64,000 nucleotides of DNA, taken from NCBI GenBank assembly GCA_963696295.1, contig CAVOJR010000001.1, forward strand, positions 1,696,001-1,760,000, read 5' to 3'. The notes under the pieces were generated by a model. It saw nothing but the letters and a program-made list of their open reading frames with translations, was not told the DNA's origin and made no database searches. This stretch comes from an uncultured Chlamydiae bacterium. GTDB taxonomy: Bacteria > Chlamydiota > Chlamydiia > Chlamydiales > JAJFMB01. Numbering within the stretch: position 1 is the first letter of the stretch; the number at the start of each line of letters is the position of its first letter. Shown here piece after piece: positions 8,854 through 59,576 of this stretch. The position numbers were made by a program, and so were the translations under genes.

Positions 8854-10038
8854 ATGTTGAAAAACTTGTTTATTTTCCTGCTCCTTTTTTCGTCCAGTGG
8901 CATTTCGGGCTGCGACCGGCGAAATCCCGAATTTTGCTCGTCGTCCATAGCTAGCGCTATGAACTCCTCACAATCTTCGGGATTTCTTGGTCTCGCTCCG
9001 AAATACCAAGTTGACGAAAATAAACCAATAGCCCTTCTTTCGGCTACTGGTTTAATTTCGTCCAGTGGCATTTCGGGCTGCGACCGGCGAAATCCCGAAT
9101 TTTGCTCGTCGTCCATAGCTAGCGCTATGAACTCCTCACAATCTTCGGGATTTCTTGGTCTCGCTCCGAAATACCAAGTTGACGAAAATAAACCAATAGC
9201 CCTTCTTTCCGAAGAGGAGCTTCCTTTCGCCGCTCCTTACACGTTTATGAAATTGGCTGATTTTGTTTATAACGAAGAGGAGCCTTTTGAACCGGCTCAA
9301 GTTTTTGAAGGCGCGGTGGTGTATGCCGTTTCTACGCAACTATCCTCATTCTTTACCATGATCCACACCCATATCAAAAACCGTTACATTCTCATCACGC
9401 ATGGCGCCGATCCATTCGTTCCCGGCAGGTATGTCAAATATTTAAACAGCTGCAAAATCATCGCGTGGCTTGGCCGAAATCCTTCAGTAAAACCAAATAA
9501 GAAGTTTCATCCGATTCCCATAGGGATTAATGCCAGGACTCAAGGCGCGGCTGAATGGGCTAAGCCTATTTATGACCGGCTCTTAGAATGCGACTGTGAA
9601 AAAGAACACCTTCTTTATCTGAACTTTGATCTGAAAACCAACAAATCGGCAAGAGGAGAGGTGTACGATTTATTCCATTCCAAACCCTACTGCTTTTGCT
9701 CTGAGAAGAAGCCGATGGAAGAGTATCTGCTCGATCTTAAAAAATCCCACTTTGTCCTCTCTCCAACCGGCAACGGGCTGGACTGTTTCAGGACCTGGGA
9801 AGCGATGCTGATGGGTTCCATACCCATTGTTCAAACCTCAAAGTTAGATCCCTTATTGGAAGATCTTCCCGTATTGATCGTTGATGACTGGAAAATCATC
9901 AATCAAAAATATCTCAAAGCCAAAAAAATAGAATTTGAAAAAAAGAGATATTCCCTTGAGAAGATTTATATTTCTTACTGGAAAGAATATATCCATCGTC
10001 TATTGAAAGAGGCCGGAATCGAAAATGATAAAAGCTGA
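8854..10038 (+). CDS. Exostosin/GT47-like glycosyltransferase-related protein, with two palindromic element copies inserted at the signal peptide
   Basis: C-terminal FVLSPTGNGLDCFRTWEAMLMGSIPIV motif; paralogous to 26069..27109; duplicated 51-aa segment near the N-terminus. Confidence 0.7.
   Translation: MLKNLFIFLLLFSSSGISGCDRRNPEFCSSSIASAMNSSQSSGFLGLAPKYQVDENKPIALLSATGLISSSGISGCDRRNPEFCSSSIASAMNSSQSSGFLGLAPKYQVDENKPIALLSEEELPFAAPYTFMKLADFVYNEEEPFEPAQVFEGAVVYAVSTQLSSFFTMIHTHIKNRYILITHGADPFVPGRYVKYLNSCKIIAWLGRNPSVKPNKKFHPIPIGINARTQGAAEWAKPIYDRLLECDCEKEHLLYLNFDLKTNKSARGEVYDLFHSKPYCFCSEKKPMEEYLLDLKKSHFVLSPTGNGLDCFRTWEAMLMGSIPIVQTSKLDPLLEDLPVLIVDDWKIINQKYLKAKKIEFEKKRYSLEKIYISYWKEYIHRLLKEAGIENDKS
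8888..9209. repeat. Two identical 154-bp direct repeats (8888-9041 and 9056-9209, period 168), each a long imperfect palindrome
   Basis: Identity read directly. The complete hairpin is 9044-9199, with arms CTACTGGTTTAATTTCGTC/GACGAAAATAAACCAATAG, GAAATCCCGAA/TTCGGGATTTC and CATAGC/GCTATG. Confidence 0.95.
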
Positions 10039-15751: not shown

Positions 15752-16507
15752 ATGTGGATGGGCAATTACGAGCTGATCAACCTCTTCGGAATGGTTTTTC
15801 AATCGATTTTCATCGAAAATTTCCTTTTAGCCAATTTTCTGGGGATGTGCACCTTTTTGGCCTGTTCGACCAAATTGAAAACAGCAAACGGCCTAGGAGT
15901 TGCCGTGGTCTTTGTATTAACCTGCGCCGGTATTCTCAACTGGCTGGTGTTTAAATTCATAACGGGGGAGAACGCCCTCTCCTGGCTGAGTTATTTTGGA
16001 TTGGACACGACGGGAATCAATCTCAATTTCCTCCAGTTTTTGCTCTTCATCGCCGTGATAGCGGCCTTTACCCAAATGATAGAAATTGTGATCGAGCGGA
16101 TTGCCCCCTCTCTATACCTCACGCTCGGCCTTTATTTGCCGCTGATCGCCGTTAACTGCGCTATATTGGGCGCCTGCCTCTTTGCCGTGACGCGGGACTA
16201 CCCCTTCTGGCCCAATTTGTTCTATGTCTTTGGCTCAGGCATGGGGTGGTGGCTTGCGATTGCTTTGATGGCGGCTATCCGGGAAAAGCTGGCCGTATCC
16301 AACGTAGTGCCCCCTTTGCGCGGAATGGGGATCACCTTTATCATGGCCGGCTTGATGGCGATGGCTTTTCAAGGCTTTGTGGGCATCCGGCTGGCTGATC
16401 CGACAGGAGGCGTACCCGTCGACGAACATCCGATTCCGGAGCCGCTAGCTTATACCCAAACAACCTCAAAATTTGGGATTTCGGCGTTGCCGAAAACAAA
16501 ATTTTGA
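15752..16507 (+). CDS. nqrE: Na+-NQR subunit E; the last ~18 codons derive from a palindromic element
   Basis: FLGMCTFLACS, LPLIAVNCAILG and AIREKL motifs. Confidence 0.96.
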   Translation: MWMGNYELINLFGMVFQSIFIENFLLANFLGMCTFLACSTKLKTANGLGVAVVFVLTCAGILNWLVFKFITGENALSWLSYFGLDTTGINLNFLQFLLFIAVIAAFTQMIEIVIERIAPSLYLTLGLYLPLIAVNCAILGACLFAVTRDYPFWPNLFYVFGSGMGWWLAIALMAAIREKLAVSNVVPPLRGMGITFIMAGLMAMAFQGFVGIRLADPTGGVPVDEHPIPEPLAYTQTTSKFGISALPKTKF

Positions 16508-16514
16508 GGTTGTT
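16451..16514. repeat. Short palindromic element related to the hemD element; supplies the nqrE stop codon
   Basis: Perfect 16-bp inverted repeat AACAACCTCAAAATTT (16459-16474)/AAATTTTGAGGTTGTT (16499-16514); inner TTTCGGC/GCCGAAA; starts TATACCCAAACAAC, as at 54879. Confidence 0.88.
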
Positions 16515-16515
16515 C

Positions 16516-17301
16516 ATGATAAATAGAGTTCTCTTAATTCTTTTAGCTCCTTTTTTCCTTTATTGCGAGCCTATCAAAAGGATACAAATTTTTGGGGAGA
16601 GGTGTTCCGGAACAAACTATTTGGAAAGTTTATTAAAGGCCAATTGCAAAAATATTGATGAAGATTATTTTTTTTATGGCTGGAAGCATTTTCCCTGCTG
16701 GTTTGACTATCCCTTTAATCCGAAGTTCTATCCGGTCCCAAAGCGCAATTATACTCTCGAAAATAACAGGAATTGCCTTTTTATTATTATTTTTCGCGAC
16801 CCCTACGATTGGCTGAGAAGCCTTCACCTCACTCCCTTTCATGCCACGGATAATTTAAAAAATATTCCCTTTGGCGACTTCATCCGCACAAAATGGACTG
16901 TCGATGCCGCTCAGATGCGGGAATGGGGGAATTTTGAGATCAATCCGGCCAACGGTTTGCCCTTCAAAAACGTGATGAAGCTAAGGAAAGCTCGTATCCT
17001 CAATATGTTGCGGATAAAAGATTTGGTGCATAATTTCTATATGATCAATTATGAAACCCTCAGCAAATCTCCGGAGGAGGTCCTGCGTGAAATCAGTCAC
17101 CTTTTCGGGGTGGAATTGCAGGAAGAATTTACGCCGATTCTGCAATCTAAAAAAGGTTTTAAAAAAAACACTGAGATTTATCAAGGTTCCCATTATCCGG
17201 CGATCAGCGCGGAAGATCTGGCCTTTATCAATCAGCAATTGGATTGGAGCGTTGAGGAGCAAATCGGTTACGGAGAGATGCAGGAAGTACCTGGGAAGTA
17301 G
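16516..17301 (+). CDS. Sulfotransferase-like P-loop protein with signal peptide
   Basis: IFGERCSGTNYLE (PSB-like), IFRDPYDWLRS and INYETL motifs; ATG at 16516. Confidence 0.65.
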   Translation: MINRVLLILLAPFFLYCEPIKRIQIFGERCSGTNYLESLLKANCKNIDEDYFFYGWKHFPCWFDYPFNPKFYPVPKRNYTLENNRNCLFIIIFRDPYDWLRSLHLTPFHATDNLKNIPFGDFIRTKWTVDAAQMREWGNFEINPANGLPFKNVMKLRKARILNMLRIKDLVHNFYMINYETLSKSPEEVLREISHLFGVELQEEFTPILQSKKGFKKNTEIYQGSHYPAISAEDLAFINQQLDWSVEEQIGYGEMQEVPGK

Positions 17302-27109: not shown

Positions 27110-28113
27110 AGATGAAAAACATACTCCTCATATTGAGTTTATGCTTGTGCTTTCTGAGTGAGGCTTTTGCTGAAAGAGGGATTGTGGTTGCTGTCAATGA
27201 CTTTTATGCAAAAAAGTATTTTATTGCCAGCCTTGAGCATTTGAGAAATCATATTAAATGCGATTTGCCGATAGAAATTTGGCATTCAGGCGATGAATTA
27301 TCTGAAGAAATAAAGCAAATATTGAAGGAATATCCCAATGTGTCATTTTGCGATATAGCCATCGAACTTAAGGTTGACAAACACCTTTATAGAGGCTGGC
27401 ATATTAAGCCTTGGATTATCTGGCTGTCGCGATTTGAAGAAGTTCTCTTGATGGATGCCGATGTTTTTTTTCTTGAAAATCCTGAGAGTTTATTTCATCA
27501 CCCGGGATATATCGGTACGGGCGCTTATTTCTTTTGCGATTATAAAATATTGATGCCCACTGCCAATTACCCCGTGGATAAGTATCTAGACCGAAGAAAG
27601 TTTATTTCCTCCCTTATTCCAAATCCAAGCAACTGTGTTCCAAATGACATGAAAGAGATGTGGTCTGATGAAATTCCGACTCTCAAAAACCCTTTTGTGG
27701 CAGATCTGGGGGAGTCGGGTTGTATCGCCATCAATAAGAATATCCATGAGTTAAGTCTTAAAGAAACGATTCAACTGAATGAAAACCGCCAAGTTACCTA
27801 TAAGTATGTGCATGGAGATAAAGAGACCTTTTGGATGGGGTGTGAAATAGCCGGCTTGCCCTATCATATGAATGATCAGAGAGCGTATGAACTTATTTCT
27901 GGAATTTTCAAACTGCATATCACTCAATTTGTCGGAAATAAACTCTTCTATATTCAGAAACAACCCTATCGATTATTCCTTAGTTTTTCCAGAATTATCA
28001 ATAATGAAGGGTGTAACAGACTTGTAACCGCTGAGGAAATTACTAAGATTAAACAATGTTTAGAATCTATACAGAAAGTGAAAAATTCAGCCCTTAAAGG
28101 AAACAATCGCTAA
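27106..28113 (+). CDS. GT71 (MNN1/MNN2-like) alpha-mannosyltransferase-like protein with signal peptide
   Basis: RGIVV, LPIEIW, K.....SRFEEVLLMDAD (DxD), ESG.I.INK and GDKETFW motifs. Confidence 0.8.
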   Translation: MKMKNILLILSLCLCFLSEAFAERGIVVAVNDFYAKKYFIASLEHLRNHIKCDLPIEIWHSGDELSEEIKQILKEYPNVSFCDIAIELKVDKHLYRGWHIKPWIIWLSRFEEVLLMDADVFFLENPESLFHHPGYIGTGAYFFCDYKILMPTANYPVDKYLDRRKFISSLIPNPSNCVPNDMKEMWSDEIPTLKNPFVADLGESGCIAINKNIHELSLKETIQLNENRQVTYKYVHGDKETFWMGCEIAGLPYHMNDQRAYELISGIFKLHITQFVGNKLFYIQKQPYRLFLSFSRIINNEGCNRLVTAEEITKIKQCLESIQKVKNSALKGNNR

Positions 28114-28495
28114 TTGATCTGCTGAGGAAACAAAGCGTCCTTAAAGGAAACTAAGCTGAGTATCTGGCAGAGGAATTTCGTGAGCGTGAAAAAAGGAAAC
28201 AATCGCTAATTGATCTGCTGAGGAAACAAAGCGTCCTTAAAGGAAACTAAGCTGAGTATCTGGCAGAGGAATTTCGTGAGCGTGAAAAAAGGGGACAATC
28301 GCTAATTGATCTGCTGAGGAAACAAAGCGTCCTTAAAGGAAACTAAGCTGAGTATCTGGCAGAGGAATTTCGTGAGCGTGAAAAAAGGAAACAATCGCTA
28401 ATTGATCTGCTGAGGAAACAAAGCGTCCTTAAAGGAAACTAAGCTGAGTATCTGGCAGAGGAATTTCGTGAGCGTGAAAAAAGGAGACAATCGCT
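28096..28495. repeat. Tandem array of 96-bp units (4 full plus a partial unit) overlapping both flanking stop codons
   Basis: AATCGC recurs at 28105, 28201, 28297, 28393 and 28489. Units differ only at GG[AA/GG/AG]AC. Confidence 0.97.
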
Positions 28496-28911
28496 TTTTG
28501 GGATAATTGATCTGCCATCTCATTTTCCCGGTGGCCGGAATGCCCTTTTATCCAGGCCCACTCCACCTGATGCCGGCTGACCAATTGGTCCAGCCCCTTC
28601 CAGAGATCGATATTTTTGACCAAAGACTTATCCTTGGTTCTCCATTTATTTCGTTTCCACCCCTCTAGCCATTGCGTTATCCCGTCTTTGAGGTAGGTGG
28701 AATCGGTCGTGATGCGTACTTTACAGGGGTGTTTGAGGATTTTGAGGCCTTCGATCGCCGCCGTCATTTCCATCCGGTTATTCGTCGTGTAGGCTTCATG
28801 GCCGGAAAGGGTTTTTTCCCGGTTGCCGGAGCGGAGCACAACCCCCCAGCCTCCCGGTCCCGGATTTCCCCAGCACCCTCCATCTGTAAACATTTCGACG
28901 AGAGTATTCAT
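28429..28911 (-). CDS. rnhA: Ribonuclease HI
   Basis: TDGGCWGNPGPGGWG, TTNNRME, TDSTY, KNIDLW and WIKGHSGHRENEMAD motifs. Confidence 0.95.
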   Translation of the reverse strand: MNTLVEMFTDGGCWGNPGPGGWGVVLRSGNREKTLSGHEAYTTNNRMEMTAAIEGLKILKHPCKVRITTDSTYLKDGITQWLEGWKRNKWRTKDKSLVKNIDLWKGLDQLVSRHQVEWAWIKGHSGHRENEMADQLSQKAIVSFFHAHEIPLPDTQLSFL

Positions 28912-40940: not shown

Positions 40941-41138
40941 TACCCAATTTATACCATTAGGCCCAATATTAGTTGGTAACTTTTCTTTCTGGCTTTTCCT
41001 TGTCGTGTCGCATTTCACTCAAAAGGATATATCCTGGAAAAGGTAGGAAAATCAATAGTATGCCATGAAACAACTTGTCTTTACGATTATACACCCTTGA
41101 TATACAATCATGGGCTTAGCATATTTGTTAATGAAACC

Positions 41139-43028
41139 ATGACACGCAAAGCAATCATTACTCCGCTAGACATTCTTACTAGGCTTTCTTGGGGTGAAAC
41201 AGATGATCTTGAATTCAAGTCAGCTAAAGGAGGTATGCCAGAAAACCTGTGGGAAACCTATAGTGCTATGGCAAATACCCTTGGCGGCGTTATTCTGTTA
41301 GGTGTTAAAGATGATGGCACAGTAATTGGAATTGCCGATATCAACAAAACCAAGAAGCAAATTTGTGATCTTCTTAACAACCGTCAAAAAGTGAATGTTA
41401 ATCTTATTCACGAAGGGGATATCCAAGTGGTTCCACACACTGATGGAAACATGCTTGCCATCCGTATTCGTCGCGCTGATCGTCGTGAAAGACCTATTTA
41501 TGTCGGGCAAAACCCACTTACTGGTACATATCGCCGCAATCATGAAGGTGATTACCGCTGTACAGAACAAGAAGTTAGACGCATGCTAGCTGATAGTGCT
41601 GAAGAACCTGCTGATAGTCGCATACTTGAAAATTTCACCTTAAACGACCTTGACTTATCAAGCCTTCATCAATATCGTAATCGCTTAGCCTCTCGCCAGC
41701 CTGCACATCCTTGGCTAGATGAAAACGATTTGGGTTTTTTAAAAAAGCTAGGTGGGTGGCGCTCTTGTCGTAAAAACAATATGGAGGGTCTAACAGTAGC
41801 TGGGCTTCTCATGTTCGGAAGAGATGAAACAATTCGAGAGGAAATACCACAATACCAGGTTGATTTCCGCGAGAGGCTATCTCTCGATCCAGAGATCCGC
41901 TGGACAGACCGTCTAACATTAGATGGAACTTGGCCGGGCAACCTCTATCAGTTTTATCATAGAGTCATTCAAAAGCTATCTTCAGACCTTAAACTTCCGT
42001 TTGAATTGGATAGCGATATGGTTAGAAAAGGAGAATCTGTAGTTCATGTTGCCATTAGAGAAGCCTTAATCAATGCGCTCATTCATGCGGATTACCAAGG
42101 ACAGGGCGGCATTGTCATAGAGAAATATCCTGATCGCTTCGAATTCTCAAATCCTGGATCTCTCCTCATTTCGTTCGATCAAATTCTTCAAGGTGGTATT
42201 AGCGAATGCAGAAATAAATCTTTGCAGCAAATATTTACCCTCATTGGAGCTGCGGAGAGAGCTGGATCCGGTATTGACAAAATTCGAACTGGCTGGGAAT
42301 CACAGCACTGGCGTTTACCAAGCGTCAGGGAACGCACACGCCCTGATCGAGTGATTTGGGTTCTTCCCATGGTAAGTCTGATTCCAGAAGAATCACTAGA
42401 TCGTCTCAAAAAACAATTTAGTTCTAAATTTTCTAAATTAGATCAATTCGAAGTCCAGGCTCTCGTAACTGCTGACATCGAAAAATATGTTAATAATGCC
42501 AGAATGCGCCAGATTACCGGTCTCCATCCTGCCGAAGTGACTAGCCTGCTACAAGGCTTGGTAAGCCGCGGTTTCCTTTGTCAAAATGGCCAATGCCGCT
42601 GGACTAATTATCAGCTCCCTCGGAGAATAGATTCCCTACATAACGAGGGTTACTCCCTACATAACGCGAGTCACTCCCTACATAACGCGAGTCACTCCCT
42701 ACATAACGCGAGTCACTCCCTACATAACGCGAGTCACTCCCTACATAACGATGATTACTCCCAAGAAACTGAACAATGGACAAATCTCGAAAATCTTGCA
42801 TTGCCTGCTATAAAAAGTAGACGACTACCTCCCCAAGAGATGGAAAAATTAATATTAAGACTCTGTAAAGATCAATGGCTAACAAGGCATCAGATTTGCA
42901 TACTCCTAAATCGAAATCCCGATGGGATTCTTTCAAGGTTTCTAACACCAATGGTTGAACATAAGCTCCTTATGCTGCGTTACCCAGACAAACCTAACCG
43001 AACCGATCAAGCCTATAGATCAGCGTAA
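41139..43028 (+). CDS. AlbA_2 (Schlafen-like) + HATPase_c_4 + wHTH protein ('RecG-like/ATP-binding regulator' class)
   Basis: ETDDLEFKSA, SAMANTLGGVILLGVKDDG, AIREALINALIHADY, NPG, CRN and ERAGSGI motifs. The start may extend to 41097. Confidence 0.88.
   Translation: MTRKAIITPLDILTRLSWGETDDLEFKSAKGGMPENLWETYSAMANTLGGVILLGVKDDGTVIGIADINKTKKQICDLLNNRQKVNVNLIHEGDIQVVPHTDGNMLAIRIRRADRRERPIYVGQNPLTGTYRRNHEGDYRCTEQEVRRMLADSAEEPADSRILENFTLNDLDLSSLHQYRNRLASRQPAHPWLDENDLGFLKKLGGWRSCRKNNMEGLTVAGLLMFGRDETIREEIPQYQVDFRERLSLDPEIRWTDRLTLDGTWPGNLYQFYHRVIQKLSSDLKLPFELDSDMVRKGESVVHVAIREALINALIHADYQGQGGIVIEKYPDRFEFSNPGSLLISFDQILQGGISECRNKSLQQIFTLIGAAERAGSGIDKIRTGWESQHWRLPSVRERTRPDRVIWVLPMVSLIPEESLDRLKKQFSSKFSKLDQFEVQALVTADIEKYVNNARMRQITGLHPAEVTSLLQGLVSRGFLCQNGQCRWTNYQLPRRIDSLHNEGYSLHNASHSLHNASHSLHNASHSLHNASHSLHNDDYSQETEQWTNLENLALPAIKSRRLPPQEMEKLILRLCKDQWLTRHQICILLNRNPDGILSRFLTPMVEHKLLMLRYPDKPNRTDQAYRSA
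42633..42762 (+). repeat. 21-bp coding tandem repeat, about 6 copies (SLHNASH)
   Basis: TCCCTACATAACG at 42633, 42654, 42675, 42696, 42717 and 42738. Confidence 0.97.
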
Positions 43029-52710: not shown

Positions 52711-54078
52711 ATGGTCGCGAAAGCAAAAACAATATGGTATTGCGCAGAATGCGGGCACAAACAGATGAAATGGGCCGGCCAATGCACCCAGTGCCAAAAA
52801 TGGAATACCTTGCACGAAGAGGTGGAGCTGCCTGAAGTGACGCGCTATGCGACTGTGCAGCAGATCCAAAGCAAGCCCTACCGCCTCAAGGAAATTGCCC
52901 ACAAAGAAACTCCGCGCGTCATGACTTTGATCCATGAGTTTGACCGTCTGGTGGGCGGCGGGATAGTGCCGGGGTCTTTGATGCTGGTGGGGGGCGAGCC
53001 CGGCATCGGCAAATCCACTCTCATGCTGCAGCTCTCCGATGCTTTGGCGAGGCAGGGTTTGGTCGTTCTCTACATTTCCGGGGAGGAGTCGATCGAGCAG
53101 ACTTCGATGCGGGCCAAAAGATTATCCATTGAAACAGACAATTTACTTTTGCTGGCTGAGACAAATATGGGCCGGATCAAAAAGCACATAGAGCAGATCA
53201 ACCCCGATATGCTCATTGTGGACTCGATCCAGCTCGTCTATAAAGATGAAATTGCCTCCGCGCCGGGATCGGTCACGCAAGTGAGGGAAAATGCCGCCGA
53301 ACTGATGCATATGGCCAAGAGTTTTAACATCGCCACCTTTTTGATCGGCCATGTGACGAAATCGGGCGAAATTGCCGGACCCCGCGTTTTAGAGCATATA
53401 GTCGACACAGTGCTCTATTTTGAAGGGGATAAGCAGCACAACTACCGCATGATCAGGGTGGTCAAAAACCGGTTCGGCCCCACCGACGAGATCGCCGTTT
53501 TTCAAATGCAGCAAAAAGGGCTCGTGGAAGTGCCTAATCCTTCCCAGATTTTTTTAGAGGAGCGGACGAAAAAGTCGATCGGATCGACCATTATCGCCAC
53601 TATCGAAGGCTCCCGCCCCATCCTCGTGGAAGCTCAAGCCTTGGTGACCGATACGGCCTACAGCACTCCGTCGCGCCGCACTACCGGAATCGATCAGAAC
53701 AGGCTGGCATTGCTTCTGGCTGTGCTGGAAAAGCGCCTCCGCTACCAGCTGTGGCGCTGCGATGTTTTTGTCTCCATTGCCGGGGGTTTGAGGATAAATG
53801 AGCCAAGCGTCGATTTGGGGGTTCTGTTAGCCGTGGCCTCCTCCTTTCGCAATCGCATGGTGGATCCCGATACGGTGGTGATCGGGGAAGTGGGCTTAGG
53901 AGGCGAGGTGCGCAGTGTTGCGCGCATCGACCAGCGGATTAAAGAGGCGAAACTGATGGGATTTGCCCGCTGCCTTATTCCTAAACGCAATGTCAAAGGC
54001 ATATCTGATGAAGTGCGTGAAAATGTCGAGCTGATCGGCGTTGAAGTCGTAGAAGAGGCGATAAATTATATCAAATGA
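52711..54078 (+). CDS. radA: DNA repair protein RadA/Sms
   Basis: C4 zinc finger, GGEPGIGKST and KNRFG motifs. Confidence 0.98.
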   Translation: MVAKAKTIWYCAECGHKQMKWAGQCTQCQKWNTLHEEVELPEVTRYATVQQIQSKPYRLKEIAHKETPRVMTLIHEFDRLVGGGIVPGSLMLVGGEPGIGKSTLMLQLSDALARQGLVVLYISGEESIEQTSMRAKRLSIETDNLLLLAETNMGRIKKHIEQINPDMLIVDSIQLVYKDEIASAPGSVTQVRENAAELMHMAKSFNIATFLIGHVTKSGEIAGPRVLEHIVDTVLYFEGDKQHNYRMIRVVKNRFGPTDEIAVFQMQQKGLVEVPNPSQIFLEERTKKSIGSTIIATIEGSRPILVEAQALVTDTAYSTPSRRTTGIDQNRLALLLAVLEKRLRYQLWRCDVFVSIAGGLRINEPSVDLGVLLAVASSFRNRMVDPDTVVIGEVGLGGEVRSVARIDQRIKEAKLMGFARCLIPKRNVKGISDEVRENVELIGVEVVEEAINYIK

Positions 54079-54716
54079 ACATCATTGTCGGCGCGAGAGC
54101 CTCGCCGCTCTCCAAAGCGCAAGTTTGCGAAGTCCTGTCAGAGCTAAAGCGCTACCATCCTTTGGTGGAATTTACTCCCCTTTTCACGGAAACGGTGGGC
54201 GATAAAGAACAAAAGACCTCTTTGCGCAACTTAGAAAAAACCGATTTTTTTACACGGGAAGTGGATCAGCTTCTGCTGCAGAAAAAGTGCCGCATCGCCA
54301 TCCATTCGGCGAAAGACTTGCCCGAACCCCTGCCAAATGGGATAGCCCTGATCGCTTTGACTAAAGGGGTGGATTCCTCGGATGCACTTGTTTTAAGGGA
54401 AGGGGAAACCCTGCAAAAAAACGCCCGCATCGCCACATCATCGCTCCGCCGGGAAGCTATGGTGAGAGAGCTTTGCCAGGATCTCGCCTTCGTCGATATT
54501 CGGGGGACGATCGAAAAGCGGCTGCAAAGTCTGGAAAAAAGGGAAGTAGATGGCGTAGTGATTGCCGAGGCGGCTTTGATCCGCTTGGGGCTGACGCACC
54601 TCAACCGGTTAAGGCTCCCCGGCGATACCGCGGAATTTCAGGGGCGTCTGGCTGTCACCGCCCGCGCGGGCGACCTGGAAATGCAGGAGTTATTCAACCC
54701 TCTCAATGCCCTATGA
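54075..54716 (+). CDS. hemC: Hydroxymethylbilane synthase, short form
   Basis: GARASPLSKAQ, AIHSAKDLP, TSSLRR and DIRGTIEKRL motifs. Confidence 0.9.
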   Translation: MNIIVGARASPLSKAQVCEVLSELKRYHPLVEFTPLFTETVGDKEQKTSLRNLEKTDFFTREVDQLLLQKKCRIAIHSAKDLPEPLPNGIALIALTKGVDSSDALVLREGETLQKNARIATSSLRREAMVRELCQDLAFVDIRGTIEKRLQSLEKREVDGVVIAEAALIRLGLTHLNRLRLPGDTAEFQGRLAVTARAGDLEMQELFNPLNAL

Positions 54717-55438
54717 GAACCCTGTATCTCGGCCTCCGCCCCAAAGAGGGGATGATTCACTTTCCTTTGATTCAAATCGTTCCAAGGCCCCTGCCGGATG
54801 AGGTTTTTGACAATTTTCCCTTCTTTACTCATCTCTTATTCACCAGCCAAAGCGCGGTGGATATTTGTTTGTCTGACCTATACCCAAACAACTTGAAGAG
54901 TTGGGAATTGGGCAAGGAGGTTCCTTCAAATTTTTGTCCGGAACGAGTGACCAGCACGAGTGAGGACGAAAAATTGAAGGTTAAACCGACGAAGCCCAAA
55001 ACTAACTCTTCAAGTTGTCTCGCCGGCAAGCTGTGTCTGGCCGTGGGAGAGGCTACAAAAAGAAGGATTGAGGAACAGGGCTACAGCGTCCTGGCCGCCC
55101 CCAAAGAGGAGACGGCTGAGGGGCTGATATCCGCGCTCGATCAGCTGGAGCTGAAAGACGCCTTTTTCTTTTGGCCCCACTCCGCTCTGTCGCGTCCGCT
55201 CTTGACCGACTATTTCGCTGAGCGCAAAGTGCGTTTTTGCGCCTGCGCCGTCTATGACACGAAATTCCAGCTGCCCGGTCCATTGCCTCCCTTGGAGGAG
55301 ATCGATGAAATTATCTTTACCAGCCCCTCAACCGTGCATGCTTTTCTCCATTATTTTGGTAAATTGCCAAAGGGGAAAAAATTGACCCCTATCGGTCCTG
55401 TTACCAAAAAAACTTTGATGCAAAGCCAAGAAATCTGA
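54713..55438 (+). CDS. hemD: Uroporphyrinogen-III synthase with a ~47-aa palindromic-element insert
   Basis: [35 protein letters not shown] and IGPVT motifs. The ATG overlaps the hemC TGA. Confidence 0.88.
54879..55019. repeat. Palindromic element inserted in frame in hemD
   Basis: Perfect 15-bp arms ACAACTTGAAGAGTT (54888-54902)/AACTCTTCAAGTTGT (55004-55018); inner stems TTGGGC/GCCCAA, CCTTCAA/TTGAAGG and GTCC/GGAC. Confidence 0.93.
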
Positions 55439-59451: not shown

Positions 59452-59576
59452 GATTTTGCCCATTTGACCTGTCAAACGGGCAAAATCCTTTGATTTTCGA
59501 TACATTTTGCCCAGTTGACTTATCAAACTGGCAAAATCCTCTGTTTTTCGATACATTTTGCCCAATTGAGGTGTCA
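59452..59576. repeat. 51-bp tandem palindromic repeats (about 2.4 copies) upstream of the ATPase gene
   Basis: ATTTTGCCCA at 59453, 59504 and 59555. Unit 1 is GATTTTGCCC-A-TTTGAC-CT-GTCAAA-C-GGGCAAAATC. Confidence 0.9.

Follow-up and report, generated by a model that had tools for sequence, protein, structure and literature searches.

Among the described systems closest to the element reported here is ERIC, which is filed as MITEEc1 in the IS630 family, and the link between ERIC and IS630 is already in print at the family level in the parts of the literature cited (PMC8613203, PMC11434687). In-frame insertion of MITEs is known from both ERIC and the Rickettsia palindromic elements (RPEs) in the passages cited (PMC2229807, PMC2759123, PMC10969869, PMC3184786). 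The RPEs are hairpin repeats of about 150 nt that lie in frame in conserved housekeeping genes, and in the tested case, Gmk, the protein is active with an altered substrate affinity (excerpts of PMC2229807, PMC10969869). A third system is RUP of Streptococcus pneumoniae, a MITE tied to IS630-Spn1 by the similarity of its ends and by its TA targets (excerpts of PMC2229807, PMC3049150). Other MITEs are described in passages of PMC3049150 and PMC9769881. As far as the cited section of a 2007 review goes, the mobilisation of bacterial MITEs by transposases was without experimental support (PMC2229807).

The element described here lies in hemD of an uncultured chlamydial bacterium. Judged from its sequence, it is likely to be a non-autonomous, IS630-family MITE that is related to ERIC and moved in trans by an IS630 transposase. 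The window, i.e., the whole stretch of 64,000 nucleotides that was analysed, is part of a 3.43-Mb chlamydial genome in two contigs. Our literature search found no description of the family in chlamydiae, and an earlier one may exist.

The chlamydial family resembles ERIC (IRU, RU-1) in its TA-bounded ends of the TATACCC type, in a hairpin that takes up the whole length of the element, in the lack of transposase coding capacity and, according to the ERIC accounts cited, in occasional in-frame fusions. It differs in being 164 nt long, compared to 127 bp for ERIC, in having perfect 26-nt arms that both look like the right end of an IS, whereas the two ends of ERIC differ, and in a net length that is a multiple of three. 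The likeness to the RPEs is one of behaviour; the host phylum is another one, the ends match an IS630 clade, and several frames on both strands are used. RUP, as described in the passages cited, has stop codons in six of six frames, stays intergenic and has its partner in the same genome; no partner was found in ours. The chlamydial family is therefore an IS630-type MITE that behaves as an RPE does and is related to ERIC, without belonging to it in the strict sense.

The hemD Insert and Its Host Gene

The preliminary description of this locus placed an insert at 54879..55019. The start is right; however, the element stops at 55018, and 55019 is host sequence (Table 1). It is also right that the insert encodes 46 residues between the FTS..AV and AVG..T motifs. 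The insert is absent from 29 of 29 genome orthologues of HemD. The span from the FTS threonine to the AVG glycine is 69 residues here versus 20-32 in 87 of 88 database homologues, which are the ones having both anchor columns, and subtracting the 46 element residues leaves 23. At the site of the insert, the 87 have a short loop.

Table 1. Positions in the window of the two elements, the arms of the hemD copy and the genes concerned.
Feature	Position	Strand	Evidence
In-frame MITE copy of subfamily A (140 nt; HemD residues 57-102)	54879..55018	+	Alignment with 8 other A copies
Left 26-nt terminal arm, starts TATACCC, resembles IS630 right ends	54879..54904	+	Agrees at 23/26 nt with the right ends of the L296 and L297 IS630s
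Right terminal arm remnant, 17/26 nt	55002..55018	+	Base-pairs with positions 10-26 of the left arm
hemD, uroporphyrinogen-III synthase, 241 aa	54713..55438	+	Pfam HEM4, E=5.8e-29
hemC, operon partner upstream of hemD	54075..54716	+	Pfam Porphobil_deam, E=1.4e-50
nqrE, 251 aa, with the element in place of a C-terminal tail that is not conserved	15752..16507	+	Pfam Rnf-Nqr
Subfamily B MITE copy, 64 nt, interior collapsed, right tip missing	16451..16514	+	Alignment with 6 other B copies

A database gene call (P0010) starts inside the insert and has a 154-aa product, which could mean that hemD is disrupted or mis-assembled and that its open frame is incidental, but this is very unlikely. All seven invariant and 11 near-invariant columns of the HemD alignment are present here, on both sides of the insert. 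This hemD is the only match in a genome-wide search for HemD domains, and its ATG overlaps the stop codon of hemC. A 151-nt contig of public run X1 spans the right junction of the insert with zero differences. Four DNA runs of low, partial cover contain no joint that skips the insert, a result that carries no weight. The P0010 call is also a caution that gene callers can shorten genes that bear such inserts.

A single-sequence prediction of the HemD structure had a mean pLDDT of 41, and an alignment-based model was used instead. With the insert included, its core has a pLDDT of about 86-98 per block and the insert one of 43-51, and the insert forms a low-confidence loop between the helix of residues 46-56 and the strand of residues 107-110. 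The HemD model matched solved HemD structures (best E=1.9e-8), and a HemD profile search of the PDB found matches as well; a phmmer search of the PDB with one HemD orthologue found none.

The hemD copy matches the covariance model of the family with E=1.6e-12 and folds with z = -11.3 on the + strand, where 0 of 200 shuffles are as good. Compared to the full subfamily A element, it is short of 15 nt at the apex and of the 9 nt at the tip of the right arm. The A-copy alignment shows two private substitutions, both synonymous and neither compensated, which are too few to test.

A Family of 164-nt Elements

Searches with blastn (two seeds, E up to 0.01) found 55 loci in this genome, and the exact 14-nt end motifs occur 53 times versus 0 for a reversed control pattern. 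Intact copies measure 164 nt from TA to TA, have 26-nt inverted arms and contain no transposase gene; the ends are TATA-bounded, and the body is a long stem-loop. There are two subfamilies, A and B, with unlike interiors, the copy in hemD belonging to the first and that in nqrE to the second. Four of the six frames of subfamily A are free of stop codons. Rfam has no family close to threshold for the element (best E=2.8).

The spread of the family across the order is patchy. Among 301 order-level genomes, 33 have at least one exact end and 11 at least three, compared to one match of the control pattern in each of four genomes; the two genomes of the same family as the host have no exact ends. 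Full-length copies bounded by exact ends were found at 101 loci; 38 measure 164 nt, and the range of 158-178 nt was set by the search pattern. By record title, most of the 101 are chlamydial or unclassified, seven are from Vibrionaceae, three from Rickettsiales and two from Legionellales. The host of the hemD copy, which the names of its HemD homologues place in the chlamydiae, is not one of the ERIC hosts, Enterobacteriaceae and Vibrionaceae. The exact-end filter undercounts the family because copies with other arms exist. Most of the lone or weak ends that were inspected (17 here and 20 stretches in five other genomes) are collapsed or mutated copies, and no inward-pointing transposase was recognised at them, judged from ORF starts only.

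Two tandem arrays of partial subfamily A units, of 41-45 nt and 117 nt, are present at C1:2629574-2629849 and 2884269-2884640 (C1 being a contig of this genome). Each unit restarts at an internal TA-containing site, which suggests local re-insertion or slippage.

The window also contains other repeats. A second, unrelated hairpin family has two in-frame copies, with an offset of 168 nt, where ORF 8854-10038 begins (8888-9041 and 9056-9209); blastn finds 36 matches to it in the genome, some of them counted on both strands. About four near-perfect copies of a 96-nt tandem repeat lie across the ends of two convergent genes (28000-28575), and a 21-nt tandem repeat lies within ORF 41097-43028 (42612-42779). 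Two intergenic 51-nt direct repeats at 59453-59554, each an imperfect palindrome, are accompanied by a partial third, and this repeat has no further copy in the genome.

Insertion in Frame

This genome has 29 copies with two ends. Eleven of them are inside ORFs of 150 codons or more, where they keep the frame open and have a net length divisible by three. Two further copies that were flagged as genic break the frame, and each is 1-2 codons after a GTG or TTG; these two are probably upstream of the true start. Among the remaining 16, the net length is divisible by three in eight. The copies inside long ORFs are stop-free multiples of three, and the reading frame matters as a filter on copies in genes. 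One full insertion amounts to a net 162 nt, or 54 codons.

A TA stands at either end of intact copies, and when the element is taken out in silico together with one TA, the 11 long ORFs are continuous. No natural empty allele of any insertion site was seen, and therefore the case for a TA duplication is indirect.

The host genes include carB, an NRPS thioesterase region and genes for a CoiA-like protein, an MFS transporter, NfeD and a Cu/Zn SOD. Insertion in frame is confirmed against orthologues for hemD and carB only, four carB orthologues being without the insert; the MFS case is unconfirmed, since the orthologue matches are distant (23-30% identity) and mostly begin after the insert. Five N-terminal copies (C1:1037214, 1369051, 2212470, 2845891 and 3077630) are within putative signal-peptide coding regions, and removing the element with one TA leaves a sequence that by eye looks like a signal peptide. 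The same peptide is present in six proteins from other contigs. Family copies are also seen in long open frames of other genomes, at 901-1064 of L052 and at 901-1076 of L114 and L048.

The Copy in nqrE and the Compensated Differences

The nqrE copy matches the covariance model with E=7e-8 and folds with z = -7.3 on the + strand, again with 0 of 200 shuffles as good. It supplies the final 18 codons and the TGA stop of nqrE; the tails of five NqrE orthologues (243-245 aa) are unrelated. A GAGG contributed by this copy is 6 nt before the ATG of the next gene at 16516 (16505-16518) and is a possible ribosome-binding site for it. That gene has a weak sulfotransferase-like match.

The preliminary description had compared the first 35 nt of the hemD insert to 16451-16485, and a recount confirms its 29 identities. 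The two copies differ at positions 15, 17, 20, 22, 29 and 32. The report that five of the six differences are compensated holds as well: positions 15, 17, 20 and 22 are Watson-Crick paired in both stems and 32 is paired in both predicted folds, leaving position 29, which is unpaired in the hemD fold. The shared sequence is indeed read in different frames (YPNN in hemD, YTQT in nqrE).

It had been concluded from this that selection acts on the DNA or RNA structure and not on the peptide. The constraint is one on nucleic acid, but selection at the hemD and nqrE loci does not follow. The compensated letters are marks of subfamily A versus B that are common to other copies in the genome; as standing differences they count as one event. 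Because hemD has an A copy and nqrE a B copy, the compensated sites record one old subfamily split and not selection at these genes.

It is improbable that hemD and nqrE keep the hairpin because it acts as an RNA structure, for instance as a target of RNase III or RNase E through which the stability of the haem-operon mRNA is tuned. The mRNA strand of the hemD copy does fold better than its complement (-67.4 versus -53 kcal/mol), the stop codon and possible ribosome-binding site in nqrE would fit such a role, and ERIC transcripts affect mRNA stability in Yersinia according to the passage cited (PMC2229807). However, the compensated sites are older than both insertions, the stem of the hemD copy is eroded and not refined, and every orthologue examined is without the insert. 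Family-wide, G.T and A.C oppositions are balanced (100 versus 112; 15 versus 16 elements, with 13 ties), and so there is no sign that the RNA strand is under selection. No promoter-like or terminator-like site was found in 54700-55200.

Arms and Interior

Covariation is real across the family. In a set of 42 representatives that share less than 90% identity, Watson-Crick pairs make up 88.5% of the cells at arm positions 15-26 versus 63.0% with swapped arms (maximum 70.2% in 2000 swaps). In a 35-row alignment, 9 of 11 arm pairs change on both sides, in 58 cells versus 18.9 +/- 3.7 in shuffles that take no account of relatedness, and slid registers score far lower than the true one. The signal that the preliminary description drew from two copies is thus kept in the larger alignments. 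The arm positions that covary are those at which IS630 ends vary, and the matching arms are best explained as putative transposase-binding ends, not as a structure that hemD needs. One copy (C1:1687592) has a private change in both arms at once, as one-step copying of one arm onto the other would produce.

Binding of a transposase would account for the arms; it does not account for the interior of 110 nt, which is a rod hairpin. Stripped of the arms, the interior has a fold with z below -3 in 42 of the 44 representatives. On the MAFFT alignment, RNAalifold found the outer 25 pairs and no others, and therefore the covariance model has no interior pairs; the column-wise counts of covariation are for the arms. 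In contrast to the balance of G.T and A.C oppositions, the motif-oriented strand is the better-folding one in 59 of 72 copies, redundant ones included.

The full-length rod might itself be selected for mobility, for instance if single-stranded or cruciform DNA folds back to join the ends or serves as a copying intermediate. This would add to the IS630-type MITE explanation and not replace it, and we regard it as rather unlikely. The interior is a centre-symmetric hairpin in 42 of 44 representatives even though their median pairwise identity is 0.61, and copy lengths cluster at 163-166 and 173-176 nt. The positions of internal loops recur across the subfamilies, where pure arm copying would erase them, and paired changes are mostly from one Watson-Crick pair to another. 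Palindromes can, however, persist by template switching without selection, and many copies have collapsed interiors.

A Possible IS630 Partner

No IS630 transposase was found in this 97%-complete genome with Pfam DDE_3 and two IS630 proteins as queries. Such transposases are present in 34 of 251 order-level genomes, and the family is IS630 (NF033545, 220 bits); the right ends there are similar to the element arms. From 80 metagenome IS630 loci, 47 right-end candidates were obtained, of which 44 score at least 19/26 against a set of 74 element arms; background 26-mers that start with TATA reach 19/26 in 1 of 502 cases. The best right end agrees with the hemD arm itself at 23/26. No IS end carries the exact 14-nt terminus of the element (best 24/26). 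The IS ends share with the element arms a variability at positions 15, 20, 22, 24 and some others.

Related IS630s, with about 43% protein identity, are found on Vibrio and enterobacterial plasmids, and five of the seven loci fetched gave usable right ends. The plasmid right end agrees at 23/26 with a Vibrio ERIC-type end and at 21/26 with one from E. coli. When each arm was assigned to the nearer set of IS ends, the chlamydial set was nearer for 53 of 53 non-proteobacterial arms, and the set from Vibrio, Enterobacter and Salmonella plasmids was nearer for 10 of 12 arms from Vibrionaceae. This comparison left out six loci from Rickettsiales, Legionellales and other Gammaproteobacteria and one from Burkholderiales, and kin are not independent in it. 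In these alignments, the element arms follow the IS630 of the host group. The arms match IS630 ends and follow the host in this way; therefore, we call the family an IS630-type MITE related to ERIC.

Like RUP, which tends to sit in or beside IS elements in the accounts cited, family copies abut IS630 ends at L231, L303 and L270 and interrupt a transposase at L216. The MITE at L231 is A-like in its interior (81/114). Its arm agrees at 25/26 with the left end of the abutting IS630 but at only 17/26 with ours. In five genomes of Vibrionaceae, Legionellales and Rickettsiales that have elements, only two IS630 fragments were found.

At C1:3090899, a Y1 transposase gene is followed by a family copy some 100 nt further downstream, and REPINs typically have long hairpins, so that a hairpin that is REPIN-like or derived from IS605, with a tyrosine transposase of the HUH (Y1) type to move it, might be considered. 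This is hardly credible. The gene sits in a 1638-bp element that has its own end hairpin and is present twice, the second copy having no such neighbour; its score places it in IS200/IS605 (146.5 bits), and against RAYT it reaches only 24.1 where the cut-off is 80. One genome (G234) has 18 element ends and no Y1 match. Membership among the REPIN/RAYT systems was rejected since the neighbouring gene is an IS200/IS605 one with its own ends. Its two 1638-bp copies, at C1 near 3090900 and 781400, are 97.6% identical.

The relationship to ERIC is strongest at the ends and through a Vibrio copy (L137), which was found with the family end pattern and matches a 127-bp E. coli element at 76%. A covariance model built from non-Vibrionaceae copies only matches the 127-bp E. 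coli element L147 at its exact bounds, weakly (E=0.021), and misses a second E. coli ERIC, L148. The latter has an exact 30-nt stretch in common with the ERIC consensus in the table cited, as compared by eye (PMC2759123 Table 1a). A larger idea, which is speculative and rather doubtful, would be that ERIC and the chlamydial family are one cross-phylum lineage of hairpin MITEs, in which the rod body works in transposition and both arms are re-tuned to the host's IS630 of one clade.

How the Insert May Have Arisen

Our explanation of the hemD insert as an IS630-type MITE starts from what is observed, namely the family, its anatomy, the in-frame position and the match of the arms to IS630 ends. 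An IS630 transposase, supplied in trans, would bind the two 26-nt arms and insert the MITE at a TA, which is presumably duplicated. The enzyme may since have been lost from this genome or may have been brought by a passing element. A 164-nt subfamily A copy would have entered the CTA codon of Leu56 of hemD, in a variable surface loop after the FTS helix, where its stop-free frame and the surface position would let it persist; the loop is presumably neutral for HemD. The copy would then have lost its 15 apical nt and its right tip, leaving the frame open and the element probably immobilised. Both arms would change together because both must suit one transposase, and copying of one arm onto the other may be a second reason.

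Conclusions

Compensated changes between two copies of a repeat can come from subfamily arms, and this should serve as a caution. We name one particular IS630 clade, and its ends track the element arms from host group to host group. Since the 2007 review discussed above found no experimental support for MITE mobilisation, the IS630/MITE pairs make this question testable. Of the new leads, the most useful are the arms that match the host group and the loci at which an IS and a MITE are paired. If there is a cross-phylum lineage, the IS and MITE of L231, and the Vibrio plasmid IS630s with the Vibrio ERIC end that their right end resembles, would be enzyme-substrate pairs for a first study of ERIC-type movement.

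The findings extend ERIC-type MITEs, and in-frame insertion in the style of Rickettsia, to environmental chlamydiae, where loops have been added to HemD, CarB and other proteins. Were the cross-phylum lineage true, chlamydial core enzymes would repeatedly receive loops of 54 residues from the family, owing to its net length of 162 nt.
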